Shown here: piece after piece, positions 23,825 to 38,708 of the stretch
Layout: each line of letters begins with the position of its first letter
Position numbering within the stretch: position 1 is the stretch's first letter
NCBI GenBank assembly: GCA_964533295.1
Contig: CAZHLM010000001.1
Coordinates: 112,498 to 176,497, forward strand
Direction of reading: 5' to 3'
DNA: 64,000 nt
Source of the DNA: an uncultured Verrucomicrobiota bacterium
GTDB taxonomy: Bacteria; Verrucomicrobiota; Verrucomicrobiia; Palsa-1439
The notes under the pieces: generated by a model
Told to the model about the DNA's origin: nothing
Databases searched by the model: none
What the model saw: the letters and a program-made list of their open reading frames with translations, nothing else
Made by a program: the position numbers and the translations under genes

Positions 23825-24436
23825 ATGAAACTCAACGCGCTCGAATTTGCGCTGATGAACAACCCCGTCCGCGCGGCCTCTCAGTGGTGGATTGAGACGC
23901 CGCTGCTGATCGGCCCGCGCGGCTCACTGGCCGGTCGGCAAGTTCTGGAGATCGGCTGCGGGCGCGGCGTAGGCATCGAAATTCTGCTCGCACGCGGCGC
24001 GGCGCAGGTCACCGGCTTCGACCTTGACCCGAAGATGATTTCCCTGGCCAGAAAGCACGTGGCGAAACATGGTGCGCGCGCCCGCGTCTTCGTCGGGGAC
24101 GCCGAGGCGATTGATGCGCCCAATTCCAGTTTCGACGCGGTCGTGGACTATGGCATCCTCCATCACATCCCCAACTGGCAGAAGGCGCTCGGCGAGATTG
24201 CGCGCGTGCTTCGAAGTCCCGACCCGGCGTCGGGGAGGCCAGGTGGCACGTTCTACTTTGAAGACCTGCTCAAGGGCTTCGTCTCGGCGTGGCCGGTGCG
24301 GGACCTCTTCGACCATCCCCAGGCGACCCAGTTCTATGGTCGTGAGCTCCGCGCAGGGCTGGTGGCGGCTGGCCTGCGCGTGACGCGGTGGCGGCAGTTG
24401 GGCGAGTGGGGGGTCATGGGGGCAGCGGTAAAATAG
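23825..24436 (+). CDS. class I SAM-dependent methyltransferase
   Basis: VLEIGCGRGVG motif I, DAVVDYGILHH motif. Confidence 0.7.
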   Translation: MKLNALEFALMNNPVRAASQWWIETPLLIGPRGSLAGRQVLEIGCGRGVGIEILLARGAAQVTGFDLDPKMISLARKHVAKHGARARVFVGDAEAIDAPNSSFDAVVDYGILHHIPNWQKALGEIARVLRSPDPASGRPGGTFYFEDLLKGFVSAWPVRDLFDHPQATQFYGRELRAGLVAAGLRVTRWRQLGEWGVMGAAVK

Positions 24437-24450
24437 CCGGCGACGACGCT

Positions 24451-24660
24451 ATGCCAGAAACGAGCCAGTCTGTGCCCGTCCCCGGGCCCGAGGCCATCAC
24501 CGCCTGCGGTGGCAAGCTCAAGGACCCTAGCCTGTACCCCAGCGCGGAGTATCGTGGACGGCGGGTCTATTTCTGCACGCGCGGCTGCCTGCGCGCCTTT
24601 GAAGCGGACCCCGACCGCTTCATGGCCGGCGAGATCGAGCACCCCGTCACGGCCGATTGA
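24451..24660 (+). CDS. stand-alone YHS/TRASH domain protein
   Basis: ITACGGKL ... YRGRRVYFCTRGCLRAFEADPDRF. Confidence 0.55.
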   Translation: MPETSQSVPVPGPEAITACGGKLKDPSLYPSAEYRGRRVYFCTRGCLRAFEADPDRFMAGEIEHPVTAD

Positions 24661-24812
24661 TCCCGAAGATCCGCACGAGCCCTCATCTGGGCTTAATCTC
24701 CCCCTCCGCCAAATGGCGCATTCTCAAACAGGCTAAACGCCTCTCACAGTTTTCGTCCCGCCCCGCTAGAGTCATCCTTGAAGCCAGACACCGATACCAA
24801 GGAGTGACTCAT

Positions 24813-25103
24813 ATGGAACACGTCCCGCATGCCTCTGAAACCGCCGACCGCCCACGGCGCGTCCCGCCCATCGTCTGGTTCCTCGGCCTTGGCCTGGTTG
24901 CTGCGTTGATCGCGATCTTCTTGTTCAACGTGGCCGTCGATACCGTCGTGTATTACTGCTTAATCGCCTTGATGGTGGGGAGTCACTTCTTTATGCACGG
25001 CTCGCACGGCGGGCATGCCGGTCATGGGCAACCAGGCACACCGACCGAAGCGGCCCGCTCAGATAAGGACCAGCACGCCGGCCACTCCGGCGGCTGCCAC
25101 TGA
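24813..25103 (+). CDS. DUF2933-like membrane protein with His-rich C-terminal tail
   Basis: MVGSHFFMHGSHGGHAGHG ... HAGHSGGCH; AAGGAG ribosome-binding site; GCCAAATGGCGC motif about 95 nt upstream. Confidence 0.5.
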   Translation: MEHVPHASETADRPRRVPPIVWFLGLGLVAALIAIFLFNVAVDTVVYYCLIALMVGSHFFMHGSHGGHAGHGQPGTPTEAARSDKDQHAGHSGGCH

Positions 25104-25130
25104 CCTCTTGTCGCCCCGAAGGAGGACCCC

Positions 25131-25457
25131 ATGAGCACCGACTGTCACGTTGAGCCGTTGTGGAAGACCGCCACCCCCGAAGAACTGCAGCAGGGGACGT
25201 CGGCGCTGCTGTCCGTCCAGGGCCTGGGCTGTCCGAACTGCGCCCTACGGGTCCGCAATAGCCTGCTCTCCGTCCGTGGCGTGGTGGAAGCCCACGTCGT
25301 CCATGAGATCGGCATCGCCGAGGTGGTGTTCAACCCCAACCTGACCAACGTCTTGGTCCTGATCGAGGCCGTCGCCCGGGCGGGGAACGACGGGCATCAC
25401 GCCTACAGCGCCCGGCTGATCGATGGACCGGGAGTGGAACGTGACCATCCGCGTTGA
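25131..25457 (+). CDS. HMA-like (ferredoxin-fold) metal-binding domain protein with atypical GCPNC site
   Basis: LSVQGLGCPNCALRVRNSLLSVRGVVEAHV resembles an HMA domain with a non-canonical metal site. Confidence 0.5.
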   Translation: MSTDCHVEPLWKTATPEELQQGTSALLSVQGLGCPNCALRVRNSLLSVRGVVEAHVVHEIGIAEVVFNPNLTNVLVLIEAVARAGNDGHHAYSARLIDGPGVERDHPR

Positions 25458-26646
25458 GCGCTATGACGCCATCATCGCCGGCGCCGGCCCGGCCGGGGCG
25501 ACCGCGGCGTATTTCCTTGGCGAAGCCGGCCGGCGCGTGCTGGTCCTGGAGAAGGACATCCTGCCGCGCTACAAGCCGTGCGGCGGCGGGCTCTCGGCCC
25601 ACATGCTGACGAAGATGTTCCCCTTCTCGTTCGACCCGGTCGTCGAAACACGCATCCAGGCCGTCACCTACGCGCTCGGCCGGCACTCCGTCACCATCCC
25701 GATCCCGGGCCTCGGCGTTCGGACGGTGATGCGCGATCGCTTCGACACGCATATCCTGGCGCACGCCCGGGCCGAGGTGCGCTCCGGCGTCGTCGTCCGT
25801 AAGGTGACGGAGACGGCCGAGGCGGTGACCGTCGAAACGACCACGGGCGAAGCTTTCACGGCGCGCTACCTGATCGGTGCGGACGGCGCGAACTCGGTCG
25901 TCGCCCATTCGCTGGGCCTGCGCCGGGGCAGGCGCAAGAACCTGGCGGCCGCCCTTGAGGCCGAAGTGCCCGCCTCCCCCGAGGCGCTGCGCCGCTTCGG
26001 CCCGGCGCTGTGGGTCCTCCTGGGCGAGATCCGCTTCGGGTACGCGTGGATTTTCCCGAAAGCCGATCATCTCTCGGTGGGCATCGCCGCGCTGCGCCCC
26101 AGGCCCGGCGAACTGCAAGCCAGGCTGGCCGACATGGCGGCCCGCTATGGCCTTTCGCTCGATCAGGCGCAGGTGAGGGGCCATCCCATCCCGCTGTACA
26201 CCCGCCGCGAGCGCATCGCCACCGCGCGCACGCTGCTGGCCGGCGACGCCGCCGGGCTGGTCGACCCGCTCAGCGGCGAGGGCATCCGCCTGGCCATCAA
26301 GAGCGGCAAACTGGCCGCGCAGGCTATCCTGAGCGAGCGGCCCGGCTCGTATCCGGAGCTGGTCCATCGCGAGATCGGCCTGTGCCACACGATTGGCCTG
26401 GGCGTGGCCTGGCTGTTCTATCACTTCCCGAGCGCCTGTTTCTGGTTGGGCACGCGTAACCCCTTTGCCACCCGGGCCTTCATGGCCATGCTCGCCGACC
26501 GCGCCGACTACCCGCAGGTAATCCTGCAAATCGTCGGCACCCTGCCGATTTTCCTGCTCACTGAAACCATAGCCGCGCTGGCGGGCCTGATCGGTGGGCG
26601 GGAGCGCCGCGAGCGCGTGCGGGCCGCCGTGTACCCAGGTGCCTGA
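25423..26646 (+). CDS. FAD-dependent oxidoreductase, geranylgeranyl reductase family
   Basis: DAIIAGAGPAGATAA dinucleotide-binding motif, GDAAGLVDPLSGEGI. Confidence 0.7.
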   Translation: MDREWNVTIRVERYDAIIAGAGPAGATAAYFLGEAGRRVLVLEKDILPRYKPCGGGLSAHMLTKMFPFSFDPVVETRIQAVTYALGRHSVTIPIPGLGVRTVMRDRFDTHILAHARAEVRSGVVVRKVTETAEAVTVETTTGEAFTARYLIGADGANSVVAHSLGLRRGRRKNLAAALEAEVPASPEALRRFGPALWVLLGEIRFGYAWIFPKADHLSVGIAALRPRPGELQARLADMAARYGLSLDQAQVRGHPIPLYTRRERIATARTLLAGDAAGLVDPLSGEGIRLAIKSGKLAAQAILSERPGSYPELVHREIGLCHTIGLGVAWLFYHFPSACFWLGTRNPFATRAFMAMLADRADYPQVILQIVGTLPIFLLTETIAALAGLIGGRERRERVRAAVYPGA

Positions 26647-26647
26647 G

Positions 26648-28339
<1,692 letters not shown>

Positions 28340-28362
28340 ACCTCAGCCAAGGGAGAAAACGC

Positions 28363-28596
28363 ATGAGCAAAATCGCCAAGTCAACGACTTCGAAAAACAC
28401 ACGGACCCGCCGCGAGTGGCCGGTCGTCGTGTATGTCTGGATCATCGGGCTGGGGCTGCTCAGTTATCTCTTCGTCGGGGAGGTCGTCCTCGGCGGGCAG
28501 CCTCATCCCTGGCACTGGGTGGCCGCGGTCGCCGGCGCCGTCGTCGGCTACTTCGTCGGCTGGCAGTGGTATCGTTGGCGTGGGGACATCATTTGA
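28363..28596 (+). CDS. small membrane protein, hypothetical
   Basis: 77 aa, two TM helices, AGGGAG ribosome-binding site. Confidence 0.3.
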   Translation: MSKIAKSTTSKNTRTRREWPVVVYVWIIGLGLLSYLFVGEVVLGGQPHPWHWVAAVAGAVVGYFVGWQWYRWRGDII

Positions 28597-28647
28597 GCAG
28601 CGGACCCACCGGCGCCGCAATCACTCTCACGAACGGAAGGAAACCTT

Positions 28648-28845
28648 ATGCATCAAGATCCGGTCTGCGGCAAACGGCTCAATCGGGGCAAGGCGCACGC
28701 CATCGTCGAGCACCAGGGTGTGAGCTATTTCCTGTGCTGTCCGCTCTGCCAGGCGGAGTTTGAGCGCGAGCCGCGGAGATACGCCCGGCCCGAGCTGGGC
28801 GAGAAGACCAGGAAGAAAGAACACCAGCCCTACCGCCGGTTGTAG
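28648..28845 (+). CDS. stand-alone YHS/TRASH domain protein
   Basis: DPVCGKRL ... HQGVSYFLCCPLCQAEF. Confidence 0.6.
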   Translation: MHQDPVCGKRLNRGKAHAIVEHQGVSYFLCCPLCQAEFEREPRRYARPELGEKTRKKEHQPYRRL

Positions 28846-28916
28846 GCTTGAGGCGACGACAAGATGGACAGGGCGCCGGGACTGGTGAGGGATTTCGCAG
28901 CGTAACCAGAACACGT

Positions 28917-29410
28917 ATGGGCCTGAACAGCATCTCGTTGGAACTTGACGCCCAGATGTTCCTGCGCCTGCTGGTCGCGATGGTGCTCGGCGCGCTGGTG
29001 GGCTATGAGCGCGAGCGCGCGGGCAAGCCGGCCGGGGTGCGGACGCACGGCATGGTCAGCCTGGGTGCAGCGCTGTTCGCGGTCGTGTCGCTGCATGGGT
29101 TCGGCAGCGCGGGCGACCCGGCCCGCGTGGCGGCCCAGATCGTCACCGGCATCGGCTTCCTCGGCGCGGGCGCGACACTTGCACCTGCGCTGCAAGTGCA
29201 GGTGTCCTGCACGAGCGCGGCAGCATTCACGGCCTGACCACCGCCGCGAGCCTGTGGGTCACGGCGGCCATCGGTCTGTCCGTCGGCGTCGGCATGGTGC
29301 TCATGTCGGTGGCGACGGCGGCCCTGGTCTTCCTGCTTCTGCGCTTTGGCCCGCGCCCCAGGCTCAGAACCGAGGCTAGCGACACCGAGAAGCAACTCTC
29401 AGGAGAATGA
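28917..29410 (+). pseudogene. mgtC: MgtC/SapB-family gene disrupted by a 35-nt palindromic insertion (frameshift)
   Basis: LVGYERERAGKPAGVRTHGMVSLGAALF ... GIGFLGAGA in one frame, the conserved GLTTAASLWVTAAIGLSVG continues in another frame after acttgcacctgcgctgcaagtgcaggtgtcctgca. Confidence 0.6.
29177..29211. repeat. 35-nt palindromic insertion within mgtC (contains hairpin GTGCAGG-tgt-CCTGCAC)
   Basis: read directly; length not a multiple of 3; removing it restores the MgtC frame. Confidence 0.5.
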
Positions 29411-31060: not shown

Positions 31061-31951
31061 GTGGCCATCGCCAAGATCGCCGCCCTGGTGGGATTAACCG
31101 TCGTCTATGCCGTCTGCTTCATGCTGATCAAGGCCGGGCTGGCGTTCGCGCCGCCGCTGCTGTTCGGCGGGCTGCGGGCGCTCATCGGCGGCGTTGCGCT
31201 GCTGGGGGTGGCGCCCGTCTTTCACGAACCGCTGCTTCCCCGCCCCGCCACCTGGAGCAGCCTGCTCGCCCTGGCGCTGACCTCCACCGCCCTGGCCTAT
31301 GGGGCGATGTTCCTCAGTCCTGGTCGAACCGGTGCGGGGCTCGCCTCGGTCCTGGGCAACACGCAGCCGTTGATGGCGGTGGCGCTGGCCGCGCTGTTCC
31401 TGGGTGAGCGTATTACAGGCCCGCATTGGGCAACGCTGGCGCTTGGCCTGGCGGGCGTGGCCCTTATCTCACTACCGGCGCTGGCCGCGTCGGGGGCCGA
31501 CGGCGTCTCGGGCGCGGCCCTGGCGCTGGCGGCGTCGTTAGGAGCGGCGAGCGGGAGCGTGATTTTCAAGCGCCTGGGCGCACAGACCCCGGTGCTGACG
31601 GTCACGGCCTGGCAATTGATCCTGGGCAGCCTGCCGCTGCTGGCGCTGTCGGCGATCGTCGAACGTGGCGCGACCGTGACCTGGAGCGCGCCGTTGCTGG
31701 GGACGCTCTTGTTCCTGGCGTTGCCCGGCACGGCCCTCGCGAACGCCGTCTGGTACTGGCTGGTCAGGCGTCACGCGGTCGGGCGGCTTACAATGTACCT
31801 GTTTCTCGTGCCGATATTCGGCCTCGGTCTCGGCGCGCTCGCCTTCGGCGAACGGATTGGCCCGTGGGAAGGCCTCGGCAGCGGCCTGGTCATCGCCGGG
31901 ATCGGCGCGGCGACGTCGTGGATCAGGCCACCCTCTGACCGAGGCGGCTGA
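31061..31951 (+). CDS. EamA/DMT-family transporter
   Basis: ten TM helices in two EamA-like repeats. Confidence 0.7.
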   Translation: MAIAKIAALVGLTVVYAVCFMLIKAGLAFAPPLLFGGLRALIGGVALLGVAPVFHEPLLPRPATWSSLLALALTSTALAYGAMFLSPGRTGAGLASVLGNTQPLMAVALAALFLGERITGPHWATLALGLAGVALISLPALAASGADGVSGAALALAASLGAASGSVIFKRLGAQTPVLTVTAWQLILGSLPLLALSAIVERGATVTWSAPLLGTLLFLALPGTALANAVWYWLVRRHAVGRLTMYLFLVPIFGLGLGALAFGERIGPWEGLGSGLVIAGIGAATSWIRPPSDRGG

Positions 31952-31954
31952 GCG

Positions 31955-32416
31955 ATGAAAGTCCGTGCCTGGTACGGCCTGACCGGTGAGATCGAGGTCG
32001 AGAACGAGCTCTGGCACCTGGTGAGCATCGGCGGCCTGCGCCTCCCGCACCCGCCGCTGGTCAACCTGGTCCTGCGCCGCGGGTTGTCTCCGGAAGACCG
32101 CCGGCGATTGAGCTTCCTGCACGAGTTCGGTCATTTCCAGACTCTGCCGTTAGCACTCGTGCATGCGCTATGGGTGCTCTCGGCCGGGCGAGGGCAGCGC
32201 CGCTCGCTGCCGGGCTGGCTGGCCTGGCTGGCTGCAGCCGGCCTGGCGCATGAGGCCGTCTGGGAGATACTATCGGAAGGTTACGTCTTCGTGCATGAAG
32301 GCTCCACCTACCTGGACGTCTACCGGCGAAGGCCCAATGGGCTTGTGCCGCTCTTCTGGGTGGTGATGGGCGTTCTGGGGATTGGATTGAGCCGGGCGCT
32401 GTGGCGCCGGCGCTAA
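31955..32416 (+). CDS. membrane protein with HExxH motif (SFLHEFGHFQT), hypothetical
   Basis: 153 aa, TM helices; HEFGH could be a zincin-like site but there is no further support. Confidence 0.35.
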   Translation: MKVRAWYGLTGEIEVENELWHLVSIGGLRLPHPPLVNLVLRRGLSPEDRRRLSFLHEFGHFQTLPLALVHALWVLSAGRGQRRSLPGWLAWLAAAGLAHEAVWEILSEGYVFVHEGSTYLDVYRRRPNGLVPLFWVVMGVLGIGLSRALWRRR

Positions 32417-33681
32417 AGCAGAGTCCCGCTGCGCGCGATCTTTTTCAGGATGGAGTGGTCGTCGCCCAGGCGGCACAGCGCGTCGCAGTGCTCGCACAGG
32501 TCATCGAAGGGGATAAAGGCCAGCGAGATGCCGGCCAGGTCATCGCGGAAGGCCGGCCGCGCCAGCTGCGCCATCACTTCCTTCTCGCGGCGGTCGGGCG
32601 CAACCAGATAAAGATGGCAGGTGCAGCCGGGGATGGAGCGCGCCAGGTCTTCCAGCCGCAGGATCCCGGAATAGATCGAGGTGCTCTTCTCGACCTCAAA
32701 CGCGCTGACGATCTCGCCCGTGCCTGGTTTCAGCCAGATCACGTCGATCAGGCCCACCGTCTCCGCGACTTCGGACGGCCAGCCCATCGCCGGCAACTCC
32801 GGCACCGTGAGCAGCGCAAACGACTGGCCGTCGTAAGAACGATGCCGGTCGTTGCGCGCCACATAGACGTCATACTTCAGCGCGCGCCCGATCTTGATCA
32901 GAAAATACTGAATCTGCGTATGCTCTGACTTTTCCTTCTGCTCGGCCAGCACGTCGGCGTGGCGGGCTTTGGCCGCCTTTTCCGCCTTCGCCTTCTCGGC
33001 CTGGAGGACGGCGTCCACATTGCCGCCTACCACGAGCCGGCCCATGCCGATCTCGAAGAGCAGCCCCGCAAACGCGCCCAGATCCTTGGAGAGCAGGTCG
33101 CGCCTCTCGGCGTTGGTGCGCACGATGACCTCGCGCATCTCCAGATAGCTGCCCCAGGAGCCGAGCTTCTTCCTGTCCCCAAACAGGGCGTTGAAGCCGT
33201 TGACCATGGCAGTGTTGAAGGGCGGCACAATCGTTGGGTGCAGGAAATAGACGATGTTGGCCACAGCCGGCCCCAGGCCCTTGATGTGTGCCCCGGCCAG
33301 GCGGCTTATCTCAGCCAGCACCTGCTCCTCGCGAGTGGCGGCCAGGCAGGCTTCCAGAAACGAGCCAAACCGGCGCTGGTTGGCCTCGTTTTCGTAGATG
33401 TCCGGGATGCGCAGCTTGGGCTTCCAATAGAACGGATGCGCTGCGCCTTCGAACACCTGCTTCTGCTCGGTGATGGCCGTCAGCACGACCTCCAGCGGCG
33501 AGCCTTTGAAATCGTTGCCGAACGACCCCGCAGCGATGGCCTCCACCGTGTCGCGCACGCCGCGCCGGATAGCCCGGAAGGCCTTCATGCGTTCCTCGCC
33601 GCCCACGAACCAGGTGTTATACACCGTCTCCGGGTCAGACTTATAACGCTCAATCAACTCAACCAGCGCGGCTTTGTCCAT
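32413..33681 (-). CDS. putative nuclease: N-terminal helix-hairpin-helix-containing domain plus C-terminal PD-(D/E)xK (restriction-endonuclease-like) domain
   Basis: HIKGLGPAVANIVYF HhH-like motif; C-terminus GLIDVIWL ... EIVSAFEVEKS matches the D ... (D/E)xK pattern; start at M16 supported by AGGAGGG ribosome-binding site; TATAAT box upstream. Confidence 0.5.
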   Translation of the reverse strand: MDKAALVELIERYKSDPETVYNTWFVGGEERMKAFRAIRRGVRDTVEAIAAGSFGNDFKGSPLEVVLTAITEQKQVFEGAAHPFYWKPKLRIPDIYENEANQRRFGSFLEACLAATREEQVLAEISRLAGAHIKGLGPAVANIVYFLHPTIVPPFNTAMVNGFNALFGDRKKLGSWGSYLEMREVIVRTNAERRDLLSKDLGAFAGLLFEIGMGRLVVGGNVDAVLQAEKAKAEKAAKARHADVLAEQKEKSEHTQIQYFLIKIGRALKYDVYVARNDRHRSYDGQSFALLTVPELPAMGWPSEVAETVGLIDVIWLKPGTGEIVSAFEVEKSTSIYSGILRLEDLARSIPGCTCHLYLVAPDRREKEVMAQLARPAFRDDLAGISLAFIPFDDLCEHCDALCRLGDDHSILKKIARSGTLL

Positions 33682-33750
33682 TGGTCCCTCCTGCCGGGTA
33701 CGCCAAATTATAGGCGCATGCGCCAAATTGCGGTATGTGTCTCAGTCAAT

Positions 33751-35302
33751 GGTGTAAATGGATTGAGTGCAACCTGAAGGTGCCAGAGTTTAGTCAGTGG
33801 TCGTGAGCTCGCTCCTGAAAGTCAGAAACGACATCATGTGAAGCGCCGCGCCCACAGCCGGCGAGCGCGCCCGCAGGCCGGGCCCCGGTCAAGGTGGAGC
33901 GAGCGCGCGAGCTGGGCCGCCCCCTGGGGCGGCGCGCGCTCGACGACCTTGACCGGGTGGCCGGAGGGTGCCGCCTCGCGCGGCGGGCGCCGGCGCGAAC
34001 CGGTCAGCGCACAGGCGCCAAGGCCGGAGCAATCATGAGCGCGCCCGCGTGCGGGTCCAAAAGCCGCTGCATGCTCGCTTGGCTGAAGTAGCGGCGCTCA
34101 ATGGCCCACTCGTCCGCCAGTTCCAACAGGACCATGCCGGTGAGACGCAGCACGGCCGGGTCATTCGGAAAGACCTGCACCACGTCCGTGCGGCGCTTGA
34201 TCTCCCGATTGACGCGTTCTAAGACGTTGGTGGAATAGAGCCGGGTCCAGTGTTCGGGCGGGAACGTCAGATAGGCCAGTACATCGTCTTCGGCCGTCCG
34301 TAACAGCGCGGCGGCTTTGGGCCAGCGCGTCTGCATCCCGCGCGCCACTTCGGCCAGCTGTTGACCAGCCGCCTCCCGATTGGGCTGGGCAAAAATCGTG
34401 CGGACCAGGGCCGCCACGACGGCCTTATCGGCGTGCGGGATATGGGCCAGCAGATTGCGCATAAAGTGCACGCGACAGCGCTGCCAGGTGGCCCCGGTCA
34501 AGACCTGAGCAATGGCCGCTTTCAGGCCTTCGTGGGCGTCACTAATGACTAACTGAACGCCGGCCAGACCTCGACCGACGAGACTACGCAAAAACTCGCT
34601 CCAGAAGGCTTGTTCTTCGCTCGCTCCCAACGCCAGGCCCAACACCTCGCGTTCGCCGGTCTCTCGCACACCGACCGCCACCACCAGGGCTTTACTGACA
34701 ATCCGCTGATTGGCACGTACTTTCACGTAGACCGCATCTAGCCACATATAGGGATAGGCCCCGCTCAAAGGTCGTTGCCGAAAGGCCGTCACTTGCTCAT
34801 CGAGCCCCTGGCACAGGCGCGACACCTTGGACTTGTCGATCCCACTCAGGCCGAGGGCTTGCACCAGATCGTCCACTTTGCGGGTGCTCACCCCGGCCAC
34901 ATACGCTTCTTGAATGACGGCCACCAGGGCCTGCTCCGTCCGCCGACGCGGCTCCAGCAAGCTTGGAAAGTAACTCCCCTGGCGGAGTTTGGGGATCCGT
35001 AACTGGAGTTCCCCCACGCGCGTTTCCAACGGCCGTTCGCGATAGCCGTTGCGCTGGGTGGTGCGCGCCGGGCTGCGCTCGTACTTCCCCGCCCCAATCT
35101 GCTGTTCGGCTTCCAATTCGATCAACTGCTGCAGTAGCCACTCCAACGCCGGCCGCAGGGCCTCCCCATCCAACGTCAGGCCCATCTTGCGTAGGTGCTC
35201 ATTCAGTGCGATAGTCAATTCGGTCATCGGGTGCTCCTGTTGCGATGTGGTAGTCACTTCAGGTAGCACTCGATGACTCGTTTTGTCAAATCCGATTTAC
35301 AC
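33751..35302. mobile_element. IS256-family insertion sequence
   Basis: transposase gene flanked by imperfect inverted repeats GGTGTAAATGGATTGAGTGCAACCTGAAG (left) and revcomp GGTGTAAATCGGATT ... GAGTGCTACCTGAAG (right); no clear target-site duplication. Confidence 0.65.
34004..35227 (-). CDS. IS256-family (Mutator-type) transposase
   Basis: 407 aa with the DDE region of IS256 transposases (YMWLDAVYVKVR ... LVISDAHEGLKAAI ... RCRVHFMRN). Confidence 0.85.
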   Translation of the reverse strand: MTELTIALNEHLRKMGLTLDGEALRPALEWLLQQLIELEAEQQIGAGKYERSPARTTQRNGYRERPLETRVGELQLRIPKLRQGSYFPSLLEPRRRTEQALVAVIQEAYVAGVSTRKVDDLVQALGLSGIDKSKVSRLCQGLDEQVTAFRQRPLSGAYPYMWLDAVYVKVRANQRIVSKALVVAVGVRETGEREVLGLALGASEEQAFWSEFLRSLVGRGLAGVQLVISDAHEGLKAAIAQVLTGATWQRCRVHFMRNLLAHIPHADKAVVAALVRTIFAQPNREAAGQQLAEVARGMQTRWPKAAALLRTAEDDVLAYLTFPPEHWTRLYSTNVLERVNREIKRRTDVVQVFPNDPAVLRLTGMVLLELADEWAIERRYFSQASMQRLLDPHAGALMIAPALAPVR

Positions 35303-35939
35303 CACCTCTCAAGACATTATCAAATTGCGCATTCATCCTGCGCCTTTTGGCGCTTACGGCGGACGTGGGGGCCAAGTACCATCGACAGTCAGAGCGCGCC
35401 TTTGGAGGTGGCCATGTACGTTGTACCGTTGTACCTTTTCCTTTCGCTCCTGCCGATTGCCTGGTTGCTGAGGCGATCACGGAGGCGGCCTGCCGCTGCG
35501 CTGCGCCATGTGACGGTGAGCATGGGCCCGACCTCCAAGAGGGGGTAGCGATGAGCACACTGAACCGCATCCTCCTGGGGTTGGCGCTGCTGACCCTGAT
35601 TGGCGTGGCCGCGCTGGCCGACGGCGCAGTGGGTGGCGGCGCGGTCTATTGGGTCTTGCGTGGACAGTTGCGTCTGCCCTGGCGCCCGCTTTCACGGTGA
35701 ATGGCGCGCCCCTGGCCGTTACTCGCTCTGCCCCCGACACCGGTGCGCGGACTATGGCCCTTGGTTGGGCGCTGGCAGATATCCGCCGAGCGCTGGATTC
35801 TCGGCGCCAGCATGTTTGTACAGCGCTATTTCCTCCCCGACAGTGGGCAGATCCCGGTCAGTGAGGTGAACAGCCTCGCCAAAGCCGCCGGGTTTGAGGT
35901 GCGTGATTCGGTTGCCCTTTTGTCTTACAGGTTGTAAGA

Positions 35940-36180
35940 TAGACCCACCACACGAGTTTCCGAGGGTGGACACAATCCAGTTGCTGGATGATGTCTCGCG
36001 GTAACTGGACAAGCAGAGCGTGCGCGTGGCCGCTGTGTATGACGGTGCCAACTACCTGGGTTTGATCAGCTTGGAAGGTATCGCTGAAACGCTGGCTGGG
36101 ATGTTTGGGCGGCGCCGGAAGCGGCTTCGCCAGATGCCGGCCGGCACATCATCGCCCGTGCCCGGCAACGGAGTGCAGTG
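35940..36180 (+). pseudogene. CBS-domain gene remnant with in-frame TAA
   Basis: [42 protein letters not shown] reads as a CBS domain interrupted by a stop; no start or N-terminal part; adjacent to the IS256 element. Confidence 0.3.
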
Positions 36181-36182
36181 AG

Positions 36183-38708
36183 ATGAAGACGACAGTCATC
36201 TTTCTGGAAGGCATTGAGTCCGTGCTTTCGCCGGCCGGGGTCGAGAAGCAGTTGTGCCGGCATCCCGGCATCCACAAGGTTGAAACGAACTTCATGACGG
36301 GCACGGCCACCGTCTACCATGACGAGTCGGTGCCGCTGGCGGAGATCAAGCGTTACGTGGCCGAATGTGGCTACGCCTGCTCAGGTGAGTGCCTGCCACA
36401 GCACGTGACCCAGCCGGGCGATCCGCCAATGGAAATGGCGCACGCCGGCCATGCGATGCGCGACGCCGGAGCTGGAGAACACGCCAGGCCTGAGATGCGC
36501 GCACATGTCGGGCACGTGATGCCGGCGTCTGAACATGACGCCCATGCCGGCCACGCCATGCCGACGGCGAAAGCGCCCGCCACAGCCGAGGCCCATGCCG
36601 GGCATGAGACACCGGCACTTGCGCCCGGTGCAAGTGTGGCTGCGGCCGGCGAAATGGAAGCTATGGCTCACGAGATGGGCCACGGCGCGGGAATGAGCAT
36701 GGAGGCCATGGTGCGTGACATGCGCAACCGCTTCCTGGTTGCGTTCGTCCTCGCCATCCCCGTCTTCCTGTACTCGCCGCTGTTTACCGACTTTTTCCAG
36801 GTTCAGCTGCCACTTCCATTCGGGCTATCAAATGAAGCGCTGTCGTTTCTGCTCGCCACACCCGCCGTGCTGTACAGCGGCTGGGTCTTCTATATCGGCG
36901 CATGGCGCGGGCTGAAGAATGGGGTACTGAACATGGCCGTGCTGGTCACGCTCTCGGTATTGGCCGGATACATCTTCAGCGTCGCCGCCACGTTCCTGTT
37001 TGAAGGTGAAGTCTTCTACGAGGCCGCGGTGCTGCTGCTGGCCTTTGTGCTCTTCGGCCACTGGATGGAGATGCGCGCCCGCTCCGGCGCGTCGCAGGCC
37101 ATTCAGGCGTTGATGAACCTCGCGCCGCCGAAGGCCACCGTCATCCGCGGCGGGCAGCAGGTCGAAGTTCCGACTTCGGAAGTGCTGCTGGACGACGTCG
37201 TCCTCATCCGACCCGGCGACAAGATCCCGGTGGACGGCGTAGTCATCGAGGGCGAGTCGAGTGTGGACGAGTCCATGCTGACGGGCGAGAGCCTGCCGGT
37301 GAAGAAGGCTGTCGGCTCCAGCGTCGTTGGCGCGACGATCAATAAGACCGGCGCGTTCAAATTCCGCACCACCAAAGTGGGCGCGGATACTGCCCTGGCG
37401 CAGATCGTCAAGCTGGTGCAGGTGGCGCAGAACTCGAAAGCACCCTCGCAGCGGCTGGCGGACCGGGCTGCGCAATGGCTGGTAGCCGCCGCCATCGTCT
37501 TCGGACTGGCGACGTTTTTCGGCTGGTATTTCTTTGGCGGGTCGGCCATCCCGCCGGGAGTGGACAGGACGGTGTGGGCCCTGACGCTCGCCATCACGGT
37601 CGTCGTCATCGCCTGCCCTGATGCGCTCGGGTTGGCCACGCCCACGGCGGTGATGGTGGGCACCGGCCTCGGCGCGCAGAACGGCATCCTGTACAAGAAT
37701 GCCACCGCGCTGGAAGAGGCAGCCAAGTTGCAGGCCATCATCTTCGACAAGACCGGCACGCTCACCGAGGGCAAACCCCAGGTGGTTGAAATCGTGGCAT
37801 CGGGCAACCCGCTCACCGAGGCCGACCTGTTGCGGCTGGTCGCCTCGGCGGAGCAATCATCCGAACACCCGCTGGCCCAGGCCATCGTGGAAAAAGCCAA
37901 GGCGCAAAACGTGAAGCTGGAAGACGCGGGTGGCTTTGAGGCCATCCCCGGCCACGGCATGAAGGCGGTAGTCGCTGGCCGGACTCTGCTGGTAGGCAAC
38001 CGCAAGCTGATGCGTGACAACCAGATCGCACTCAATGAACTGGGAGAGCGCGCCGCCTCCCTGGAAGGCGCGGGGCGCACGGTGGTATATGCCGCTGCGG
38101 ATGGCCAATTCGTCGGGCTCATCGCCATCGCCGACGCGGTGCGGCCCAACGCCCGGCTCGCCGTCGAGAAGCTGACCAGCATGGGCGTACAGGTTGCCAT
38201 GCTCACCGGCGACAATCGTGCCACCGCTGAACGTATCGCGGGCGAGCTCGGTATCCAGACCGTGTTCGCCGAAGTGCTGCCGGGCCAGAAAGCTGACAAG
38301 GTGAAGGAGCTGCAATCGCAGGGGAAGCTGGTGGCGATGGTGGGCGATGGCATCAACGACGCCCCGGCGCTGGCGCAGGCCGACGTGGGCATCGCCATCG
38401 GCGCGGGCACCGACGTGGCGATGGAGACCGCCGACGTGGTGCTGATGAAGTCCGATCCGTTCGACGTGATTGGTGCCATCACGCTCAGCCGGGCGACGTT
38501 GAGCAAGATGCACCAGAATCTGTGGTGGGCAGCGGGTTACAATACCATTGCCTTCCCCATTGCCGCCGGCTTGTTCTACCCGGCCTTCGGGCTGATCCTG
38601 CGCCCCGAAATTGCCGCCATCTCGATGTCGGGTTCGTCTCTGCTGGTAGCGGTCAATGCCTTGATGCTAAAGAACACGAAGCTGGAAGGCATCCGGGCCA
38701 AAGCATAA
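36183..38708 (+). CDS. P1B-type heavy-metal ATPase with cysteine-free HMA-like N-domain, His/Met-rich stretch and CPD TM motif
   Basis: [10 protein letters not shown] ... [20 protein letters not shown] ... [25 protein letters not shown] instead of [26 protein letters not shown] and MSGSS. Confidence 0.85.

Follow-up and report, generated by a model that had tools for sequence, protein, structure and literature searches.

We report that a gene for a 422-amino-acid (aa) protein, located in a 64-kb stretch of the genome of an uncultured Verrucomicrobiota bacterium (assembly GCA_964533295.1, contig CAZHLM010000001.1; the whole stretch is hereafter referred to as the window and positions are numbered within it), belongs with high confidence to the CopL family, a family tied functionally or selectively to metal-resistance determinants, and that it represents neither a classical restriction-modification (R-M) enzyme nor a Shedu/Mrr-type defence gene. 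The protein consists of a helical N-terminal domain with a helix-hairpin-helix (HhH) motif, weakly similar to the HhH-GPD glycosylases, and an NmeDI-type PD-(D/E)xK domain with a conserved acidic triad. On balance, our data favour a metal-cluster-linked DNA nuclease of the CopL family as the overall explanation. Moreover, an insertion sequence (IS) of the IS256 family is present immediately upstream of the gene, and comparison with homologous copL loci (designated by L-numbers, e.g. L005 and L009) provides some insight into how this region was rearranged. A preliminary description of the window, based on the letters alone, had recognised an HhH plus PD-(D/E)xK nuclease gene with an IS256 element in its promoter region, and had likened the product to single-gene defence nucleases.

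Relationship to CopL of pMOL30 and other plasmids

The window protein aligns with RMET_RS30570 (Rmet_6120) of plasmid pMOL30 from Cupriavidus metallidurans CH34 over aa 9-418, i.e. 97% of its length, with 49.3% identity (tblastn, E 9e-118). Rmet_6120 is copL according to its published locus tag and its position: a Cu-induced antisense transcript of approximately 500-700 nucleotides (nt), reported to start inside pMOL30 copL (L088 11980-13245) at nt 181,548, begins within this gene (PMC7563307). On pMOL30 it is situated between the copF P-type ATPase gene, with a DUF2933 gene, and copQ/copH/copE. The two proteins are of almost the same size (421 and 422 aa) and have the same conserved HhH and D...ExE residues, and in both cases the gene is divergent from a heavy-metal P-type ATPase operon, pMOL30 copL being transcribed divergently from copOFGJ. 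The pMOL30 protein differs in that it lacks the H398-C399-x3-C403 motif of the window protein; further, its gene belongs to a cop cluster of 21 genes that includes CopRS, and the window is limited to the ATPase, the YHS, HMA (heavy-metal-associated) and MgtC genes, and scars of other neighbours.

Homologs on Enterococcus faecium and Listeria plasmids are 40-41% identical to the window protein and lie in a copper-resistance region together with genes for CopY, a P-type ATPase, HMA chaperones, a multicopper oxidase and DUF2933 proteins. A candidate CopY box upstream of the Enterococcus homolog was discarded, the sole match being at chance level and inside another gene. The arrangement is CusCBA-CusF-copL on a Sphingobium plasmid and ATPase/cupredoxin-copL on a Hymenobacter plasmid.

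Genomic context across the family

To describe the neighbourhood of copL, all open reading frames (ORFs) within 5 kb were clustered in 82 genome loci from many phyla and the clusters were named by Pfam. At least one unambiguous metal gene (heavy-metal P-type ATPase, resistance-nodulation-division (RND) efflux component, multicopper oxidase or MerR) was present in 54 of the 82 loci. Specifically, heavy-metal P-type ATPases were found in 28 loci, CusB/CzcB-type adaptors in 17, class-I S-adenosylmethionine (SAM) methyltransferases in 15, CusA/CzcA-type RND pumps, outer-membrane factors and multicopper oxidases in 13 each, extracytoplasmic function (ECF) sigma factors in ten and MerR regulators in eight. 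For comparison, a heavy-metal ATPase is expected in roughly 1% of random 11-kb segments, a figure estimated from typical gene counts and not a computed control.

The linkage is in part operon-like. Proteobacterial and cyanobacterial loci have an ATPase gene upstream of copL on the same strand at a distance of 66-138 nt, and in acidobacterial (Blastocatellia) loci the order is ATPase, SAM methyltransferase and copL with a 14-nt gap. Class-I SAM methyltransferases of the UbiE/Methyltransf_11 type recur beside copL (L026-L028 5331-5987; L021, L073 and L075; pMOL30, L088 21805-22575), and the CH34 ubiE genes beside the cop cluster are Cu-induced (PMC7563307).

Conservation and distribution

The homology search gave at least 6788 relatives, of which the best 120 were all at least 80% identical to the window protein, and a scan using one genome per species detected the gene in at least 554 species at 57-88% identity. 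CopL is present in Chloroflexota, Nitrospirota, Verrucomicrobiota, Acidobacteriota, Proteobacteria, Firmicutes, Cyanobacteria, Bacteroidota and Planctomycetota as well as in Methanoperedens archaea, and even the archaeal proteins share 57-60% identity with that of the window. Clustering at 50% left only about ten full-length representatives.

The median identity over 190 locus pairs was 62% for CopL compared to 39% for the adjacent ATPases. Between the window and the syntenic, IS-free locus L005, the corresponding values were 85.5% for CopL, 84.6% for phosphoenolpyruvate carboxykinase (PEPCK), 82.4% for the ATPase and 62.6% for the EamA transporter. Judged from these identities, CopL evolves as slowly as a core enzyme. 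Within the protein, conservation is highest in the N-terminal domain, with a column mean of 0.76 compared to 0.66 in the C-terminal domain. This combination of slow evolution and a highly conserved N-terminal domain is the opposite of what is usual for restriction and defence nucleases, and it points to a universal substrate.

The patchy distribution across phyla and domains at high identity, together with the frequent location on plasmids and beside transposase and integrase genes, would also be expected of a mobility or maintenance factor of metal islands, i.e. a homing-type or addiction nuclease aiding their spread or retention. We regard this as improbable, as no conserved partner (antitoxin or recombinase) was present across the loci, the surrounding cargo is not co-conserved, the synteny with housekeeping genes is stable between the window and L005, and no repeat or target-site signature was found.

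Domain architecture and conserved residues

The full-length AlphaFold2 (AF2) model has two domains (predicted local distance difference test, pLDDT, 87), the coordinates of which are given in Table 1 together with those of the other features. Conservation was scored in alignments of 14, 87 and 6 sequences. The HhH motif named in the preliminary description lies in the helical N-terminal domain; G135, N142 and N156 are invariant in all alignments, and L136, G137 and P138 nearly so.

Table 1. Features of the copL region of the window
Feature	Position	Strand	Basis and remarks
copL-family coding sequence (CDS), 422 aa	32413..33681	-	ATG at 33681, stop codon 32413-32415; ORF listing, ortholog starts, homology to pMOL30 copL, PF27126 NmeDI_C
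C-terminal alpha/beta nuclease-fold domain, NmeDI_C type, aa about 268-415	32437..32880	-	PF27126, PADLOC REase_II, weak Foldseek matches
Putative catalytic D313 ... E329-V-E331 (D...ExE)	32689..32745	-	Conservation in alignments
Long connecting helix, aa 219-267	32881..33027	-	DSSP of model; poorly conserved except H254/Q258
N-terminal all-helical domain, aa 1-215	33037..33681	-	AF2 of the domain alone, pLDDT 91.4, predicted TM-score (pTM) 0.89
HhH motif HIKGLGPAVANIVYF, aa 132-146, followed by conserved PPFN156TA	33244..33288	-	Alignments
Shine-Dalgarno sequence AGGAGGG	33686-33692	-	4 nt to ATG; AGGAGGG or GGAG kept in closest orthologs
-10 box TATAAT	33707-33712	-	Kept in L005, L008, L009, L010, L011 and L015, 23-33 nt from ATG
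Palindrome GGCGCATGCGCC	33713-33724	.	Abuts -10 box; candidate operator
IS256-family insertion sequence, 1553 bp	33751..35303	-	Same orientation as copL; imperfect terminal inverted repeats, identified by repeat search and reading
IS256-family transposase CDS, 407 aa from ATG	34004..35227	-	NF033543 8.5e-114, PF00872 3.3e-129; called as 407 aa in public contigs
CMAS-type SAM methyltransferase remnant, 45 codons	35773..35907	+	tblastn 64% identity, E 2e-14, residues 362-406 of the 420-aa L009 protein
M50/CBS peptidase remnant, about 60 C-terminal codons	35954..36133	+	tblastn 46% identity, E 3e-10; in-frame stop inside alignment
Heavy-metal P1B-type ATPase, divergent from copL	36183..38708	+	PF00122, PF00702, PF00403

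In a Foldseek comparison of the N-terminal domain, the top eight matches were all HhH-GPD glycosylases (MutY, Ogg; E 0.1-0.3, TM-scores 0.29-0.34). As in MutY, Nth and Ogg, the HhH motif of CopL is followed by a Pro-rich loop. CopL differs from these enzymes in that it is without the Fe-S cluster loop and has Ala139 and Asn156 at the positions of the Lys and Asp: in a motif alignment by hhalign, itself not significant, the catalytic Lys120 of Nth corresponds to Ala139 and the catalytic Asp138 to the invariant Asn156. Because of these replacements glycosylase chemistry is unlikely for CopL and, on present sequence comparisons, we read the N-terminal domain as a putative DNA-binding module rather than a glycosylase.

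The C-terminal restriction-endonuclease-fold signature, which had also been proposed at the outset (GLIDVIWL, aa 310-317, and EIVSAFEVEK, aa 323-332), could be substantiated in several ways. The window protein itself and all 120 homologs listed have a precomputed match to PF27126 NmeDI_C (E at most 1e-5), and the PADLOC model REase_II matches aa 250-380 (2.3e-9; profile positions 174-309 of 351). Foldseek against PDB gave weak matches of the C-terminal domain to PD-(D/E)xK proteins, viz. the nuclease domains of Cdn1, Can2 and Card1, and BsaWI and BstEII. D313 and E331 do not vary in the 14-, 87- and 6-sequence alignments, and E329 is retained in at least 90-95% of the sequences. These three residues, as well as the segment STSIxSG..R..DL and the loop WKPKLRIPDIYEN, are kept even in very remote members, among them those of pMOL30, Enterococcus and archaea. 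The D...ExE arrangement is BamHI-like.

Scans of the window protein and 14 homologs against Pfam (a set without PF27126) and NCBIfam gave chance matches only, e.g. FloA. The coronavirus spike HR1 matches in the PDB sequence and profile searches were dismissed as coiled-coil noise, and Pfam scans of ten relatives of atypical length, examined for alternative domain fusions, gave nothing useful.

Possible restriction and defence functions

The C-terminal nuclease domain is common to CopL and R.NmeDI of Neisseria meningitidis (PF27126), a 351-aa enzyme described in an R-M system that cuts on both sides of RCCGGY. This system includes a C5 methyltransferase and Vsr. In contrast, CopL has a larger and dissimilar N-terminal domain and no methyltransferase, and the DNA of the window host is rich in RCCGGY sites (135 GCCGGC in 64 kb), the NmeDI core CCGG occurring 727 times in the window. 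Neither the window nor 967 kb of family loci had any palindromic 4- or 6-mer that was avoided. No DNA methyltransferase or partner ATPase was present within +/-8 kb of copL in the window, as had been noted before, and neither ORF clustering nor a motif scan detected a DNA methyltransferase in the 82 loci; the sole methyltransferases near copL are class-I small-molecule types (UbiE/CMAS).

The likeness to Shedu/Mrr-type defence nucleases extends to CopL also being a solitary PD-(D/E)xK-type nuclease without an adjacent methyltransferase. Searches of Pfam, NCBIfam and PADLOC up to E 1 gave no match to the models for Shedu (DUF4263), Mrr, McrC and NucS, a search of phages found no phage homolog, and the 82 loci had no defence-system neighbours. 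Moreover, CopL lies beside metal-resistance genes and not in defence islands, and it is far more conserved than such nucleases. The defence assignment in the preliminary description was therefore abandoned, and the window gene is probably not a stand-alone anti-phage nuclease. Nor are the homologs housekeeping DNA-repair enzymes, which would have been the other way for that assignment to fail; they are accessory genes of metal clusters.

A related possibility is that CopL is a restriction or defence nuclease of the solitary kind, either an orphan type II enzyme or a type IV-like, modification-dependent one whose HhH domain reads modified bases, and merely rides on mobile metal islands, such that the linkage reflects shared mobility and not a common function. 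This is unlikely in our view, although it accommodates the homology of the C-terminal domain to a proven restriction enzyme, the public annotation of family members as 'type II restriction endonuclease', and the lack of a methyltransferase, which a type IV enzyme does not require. It would also fit with the plasmid records carrying a homolog (184 by tblastn, 85 of them conjugative), with the IS, Tn3 and integrase genes near copL in several loci and with the horizontal transfer implied by the high cross-phylum identity. However, methyltransferase and defence neighbours are missing from the 82 loci, PADLOC recognises only the generic REase_II, no phage homolog was found, and CopL is conserved far above the adjacent cargo, notably in the putative DNA-reading N-terminal domain. 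Furthermore, the operon-like ATPase linkage extends over several phyla, and copL of the window lineage is syntenic, chromosomal and evolving at the rate of PEPCK.

Start codon, upstream signals and a possible regulatory role

The longest form of the ORF (32413-33726, minus strand) starts at a TTG and encodes 437 aa. The ATG at 33681 is favoured as the copL start given that all of more than 80 orthologs align from this Met. The strong ribosome-binding site, the consensus TATAAT and the adjoining palindrome that had been noted earlier are all present upstream of this ATG (Table 1). A consensus promoter scan revealed no complete sigma-70 -35/-10 pair upstream of copL and no -35 element matching the TATAAT; the TATAAT is nevertheless more than a chance match, since IS-free Anaerolineae orthologs have it at the same spacing to the start codon. 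We also rejected a hybrid promoter formed by IS and flank, because 31 nt separate the TTGACT at the IS junction from the TATAAT, which is too far for sigma-70, and the scan was negative.

In L009, L010, L011 and L015, GCGCA(C/T) boxes flank the conserved TATAAT at about -30 to -75 from the ATG, as exemplified by AGTGCGCAT-N6-ATGCGCACT in L010. In the window (33695-33724) these boxes are compressed into GGCGCATGCGCC, with GGCGTAC downstream. Together they constitute a candidate operator for some regulator.

Conceivably, CopL is itself a DNA-binding regulator or metal sensor that binds DNA through its nuclease fold and HhH domain, perhaps at its own palindromic promoter boxes, and uses a Cys/His site to sense Cu(I) or another thiophilic metal. 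The description of CopL as a 'cys-rich cytosolic protein' is in keeping with this, as are the conservation of C112, H398, C399 and C403 in 78-88% of 87 members, the divergent promoter common to copL and metal transporter operons, and the GCGCA(C/T) boxes kept around the -10 box in Anaerolineae orthologs. Yet the boxes are conserved in one clade only, and the Cys399/Cys403 pair is missing from the pMOL30 and Enterococcus proteins, so a Cys/His metal site was rejected as a family-wide feature. Considering also that the catalytic acidic residues, which a pure DNA binder does not need, are conserved, and that CopRS, CopY, MerR or ECF regulators are already present in the clusters, we find a regulatory role slightly less likely than the solitary restriction nuclease discussed above.

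The IS256 element and the remodelled upstream region

The terminal inverted repeats of the IS are imperfect; they begin at 33751 (GGTGTAAATGGATT...) and finish at 35303 (...AATCCGATTTACACC). The IS end is 69-70 nt from the copL ATG and 25 nt from the TTG, in agreement with the distances given in the preliminary description, and lies upstream of the -10 box by 38 nt. The insertion just upstream of the core promoter is real. Public contigs carrying the transposase gene all have the same single insertion site and junction, and the CopL protein is identical across nine contigs from several samples. A look-up of other transposase copies as a guide to the IS ends returned this same insertion site only.

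The sequences flanking the IS match at only five of eight positions (TCAGTCAA vs CCTCTCAA), i.e. there is no clean 8-bp target duplication, which is consistent with an adjacent deletion because gene remnants are present at 35773-36133. Inspection of IS-free relatives, which had been suggested as a check, showed that copL there is divergent, across a short intergenic region, from genes that are intact, whereas between the IS and the ATPase gene the window has fragments only. In L009 the divergent partner encodes a CMAS-type methyltransferase (420 aa; PF02353 CMAS, 4e-79), and in L005 a protein with Peptidase_M50 and CBS domains, whose gene precedes that of the ATPase at the same position as the remnant in the window. 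The 470 nt between the IS end and the methyltransferase remnant (35304-35772) had no match to anything tested. Read most simply, the IS inserted and, at the same time or afterwards, a deletion eliminated the divergent genes along with all sequence beyond about -38 from the copL -10 box. The copL ORF, the ribosome-binding site and the -10 box remained intact. The locus provides an example of IS256 insertion and deletion remodelling a control region that two metal-resistance genes have in common.

The IS tail downstream of the transposase stop codon comprises 253 nt and is GC-rich and non-coding. It contains a perfect 12-bp inverted repeat (CCCGGTCAAGGT / ACCTTGACCGGG at 33884-33895 / 33946-33957), which may serve to block transcription between the transposase gene and copL.

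Neighbouring genes in the window

The window ATPase has an HMA domain followed by a His-rich N-terminal stretch with repeated AHAGH/HxxH (36183-36700). Its transmembrane metal motif is CPD and not the usual CPC/CPH, and the metal specificity is uncertain. Downstream of copL (24400-29300) are genes for two YHS-domain proteins, an HMA-domain protein, MgtC, a UbiH-like FAD monooxygenase and a UbiE-type methyltransferase, the YHS, HMA and MgtC genes being within 9 kb of copL. The grouping of copL with a DMT/EamA transporter gene (31061-31951) and a UbiB/ABC1 kinase gene (26648-28339) recurs on a Pseudarthrobacter plasmid (L097 10248-12948; CopL 46% identical), which may point to a further conserved module in addition to the metal pumps.

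A 153-aa hydrophobic ORF (31955-32416, plus strand) lies convergently to copL, with a 4-nt overlap at the copL stop codon. It had no family match and is present in all contigs of this strain, and it is absent from the ortholog locus L005.

Discussion

The name copL is established, having first been used for the pMOL30 cop cluster of C. metallidurans, and the literature that we searched does not describe the breadth of the family, its conservation, its metal linkage or its two-domain nuclease architecture. Taken together, the data presented above favour a metal-cluster-linked DNA nuclease, and the following working model is offered for how such a protein might operate. Given the conserved acidic triad, CopL would be an active, Mg/Mn-dependent DNA nuclease. 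The HhH domain would hold DNA without sequence specificity, using a glycosylase-like scaffold from which the catalytic Asp and Lys have apparently been lost, and the C-terminal domain would nick or cut it. The target would be metal-damaged, metal-bound or otherwise abnormal DNA and not foreign DNA sequences. As a tentative proposal, CopL would have as its substrate a universal state of DNA that metal stress brings about; of the functions considered for the nuclease this gives the best fit, since CopL evolves slowly and no methyltransferase accompanies it.

Several points weigh against the metal-linked nuclease. With respect to structure, the Foldseek matches to PDB are all below significance (none <1e-3; best E 0.019 for the full-length protein and 0.1 for the N-terminal domain), and the HhH-GPD relationship is without sequence-profile support (Pfam, PDB profile and hhalign vs E. 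coli Nth were not significant). With respect to context, about a third of the 82 loci have no recognised metal gene within 5 kb, the clustering of these loci revealed no conserved DNA-repair neighbour genes, and a methyltransferase may be encoded elsewhere, unlinked to copL. Finally, the literature searched contributes no functional data on CopL and refers to it in no other terms than as the cys-rich cytosolic protein; in CH34, acute exposure to Cu did not induce copL, and its product went undetected in proteomes. The CH34 gene is, on the other hand, induced by a metal mix.

Lists of cop cluster genes have included copL for years with no function given, and in databases its product goes under the name of type II restriction endonuclease. 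Our data place copL among the best conserved genes found around metal-resistance determinants, over a range that extends from Chloroflexota to plasmids of Firmicutes and to archaea, and this high conservation, the lack of pairing with a DNA methyltransferase and the intact nuclease triad argue against a role as a restriction enzyme. It is possible, if speculative, that CopL, as a slowly evolving and pan-prokaryotic nuclease, represents a hitherto overlooked DNA-level arm of metal resistance, in which a catalytically disarmed HhH-GPD-like reading domain and a restriction-type nuclease domain recognise and cut a universal DNA state caused by copper or another thiophilic metal, and that this activity accounts for its co-selection with efflux pumps. 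If true, a DNA-processing step would be added to copper and heavy-metal resistance, and this would bear on the copper-resistance plasmids of Enterococcus and Listeria in food and farm settings.

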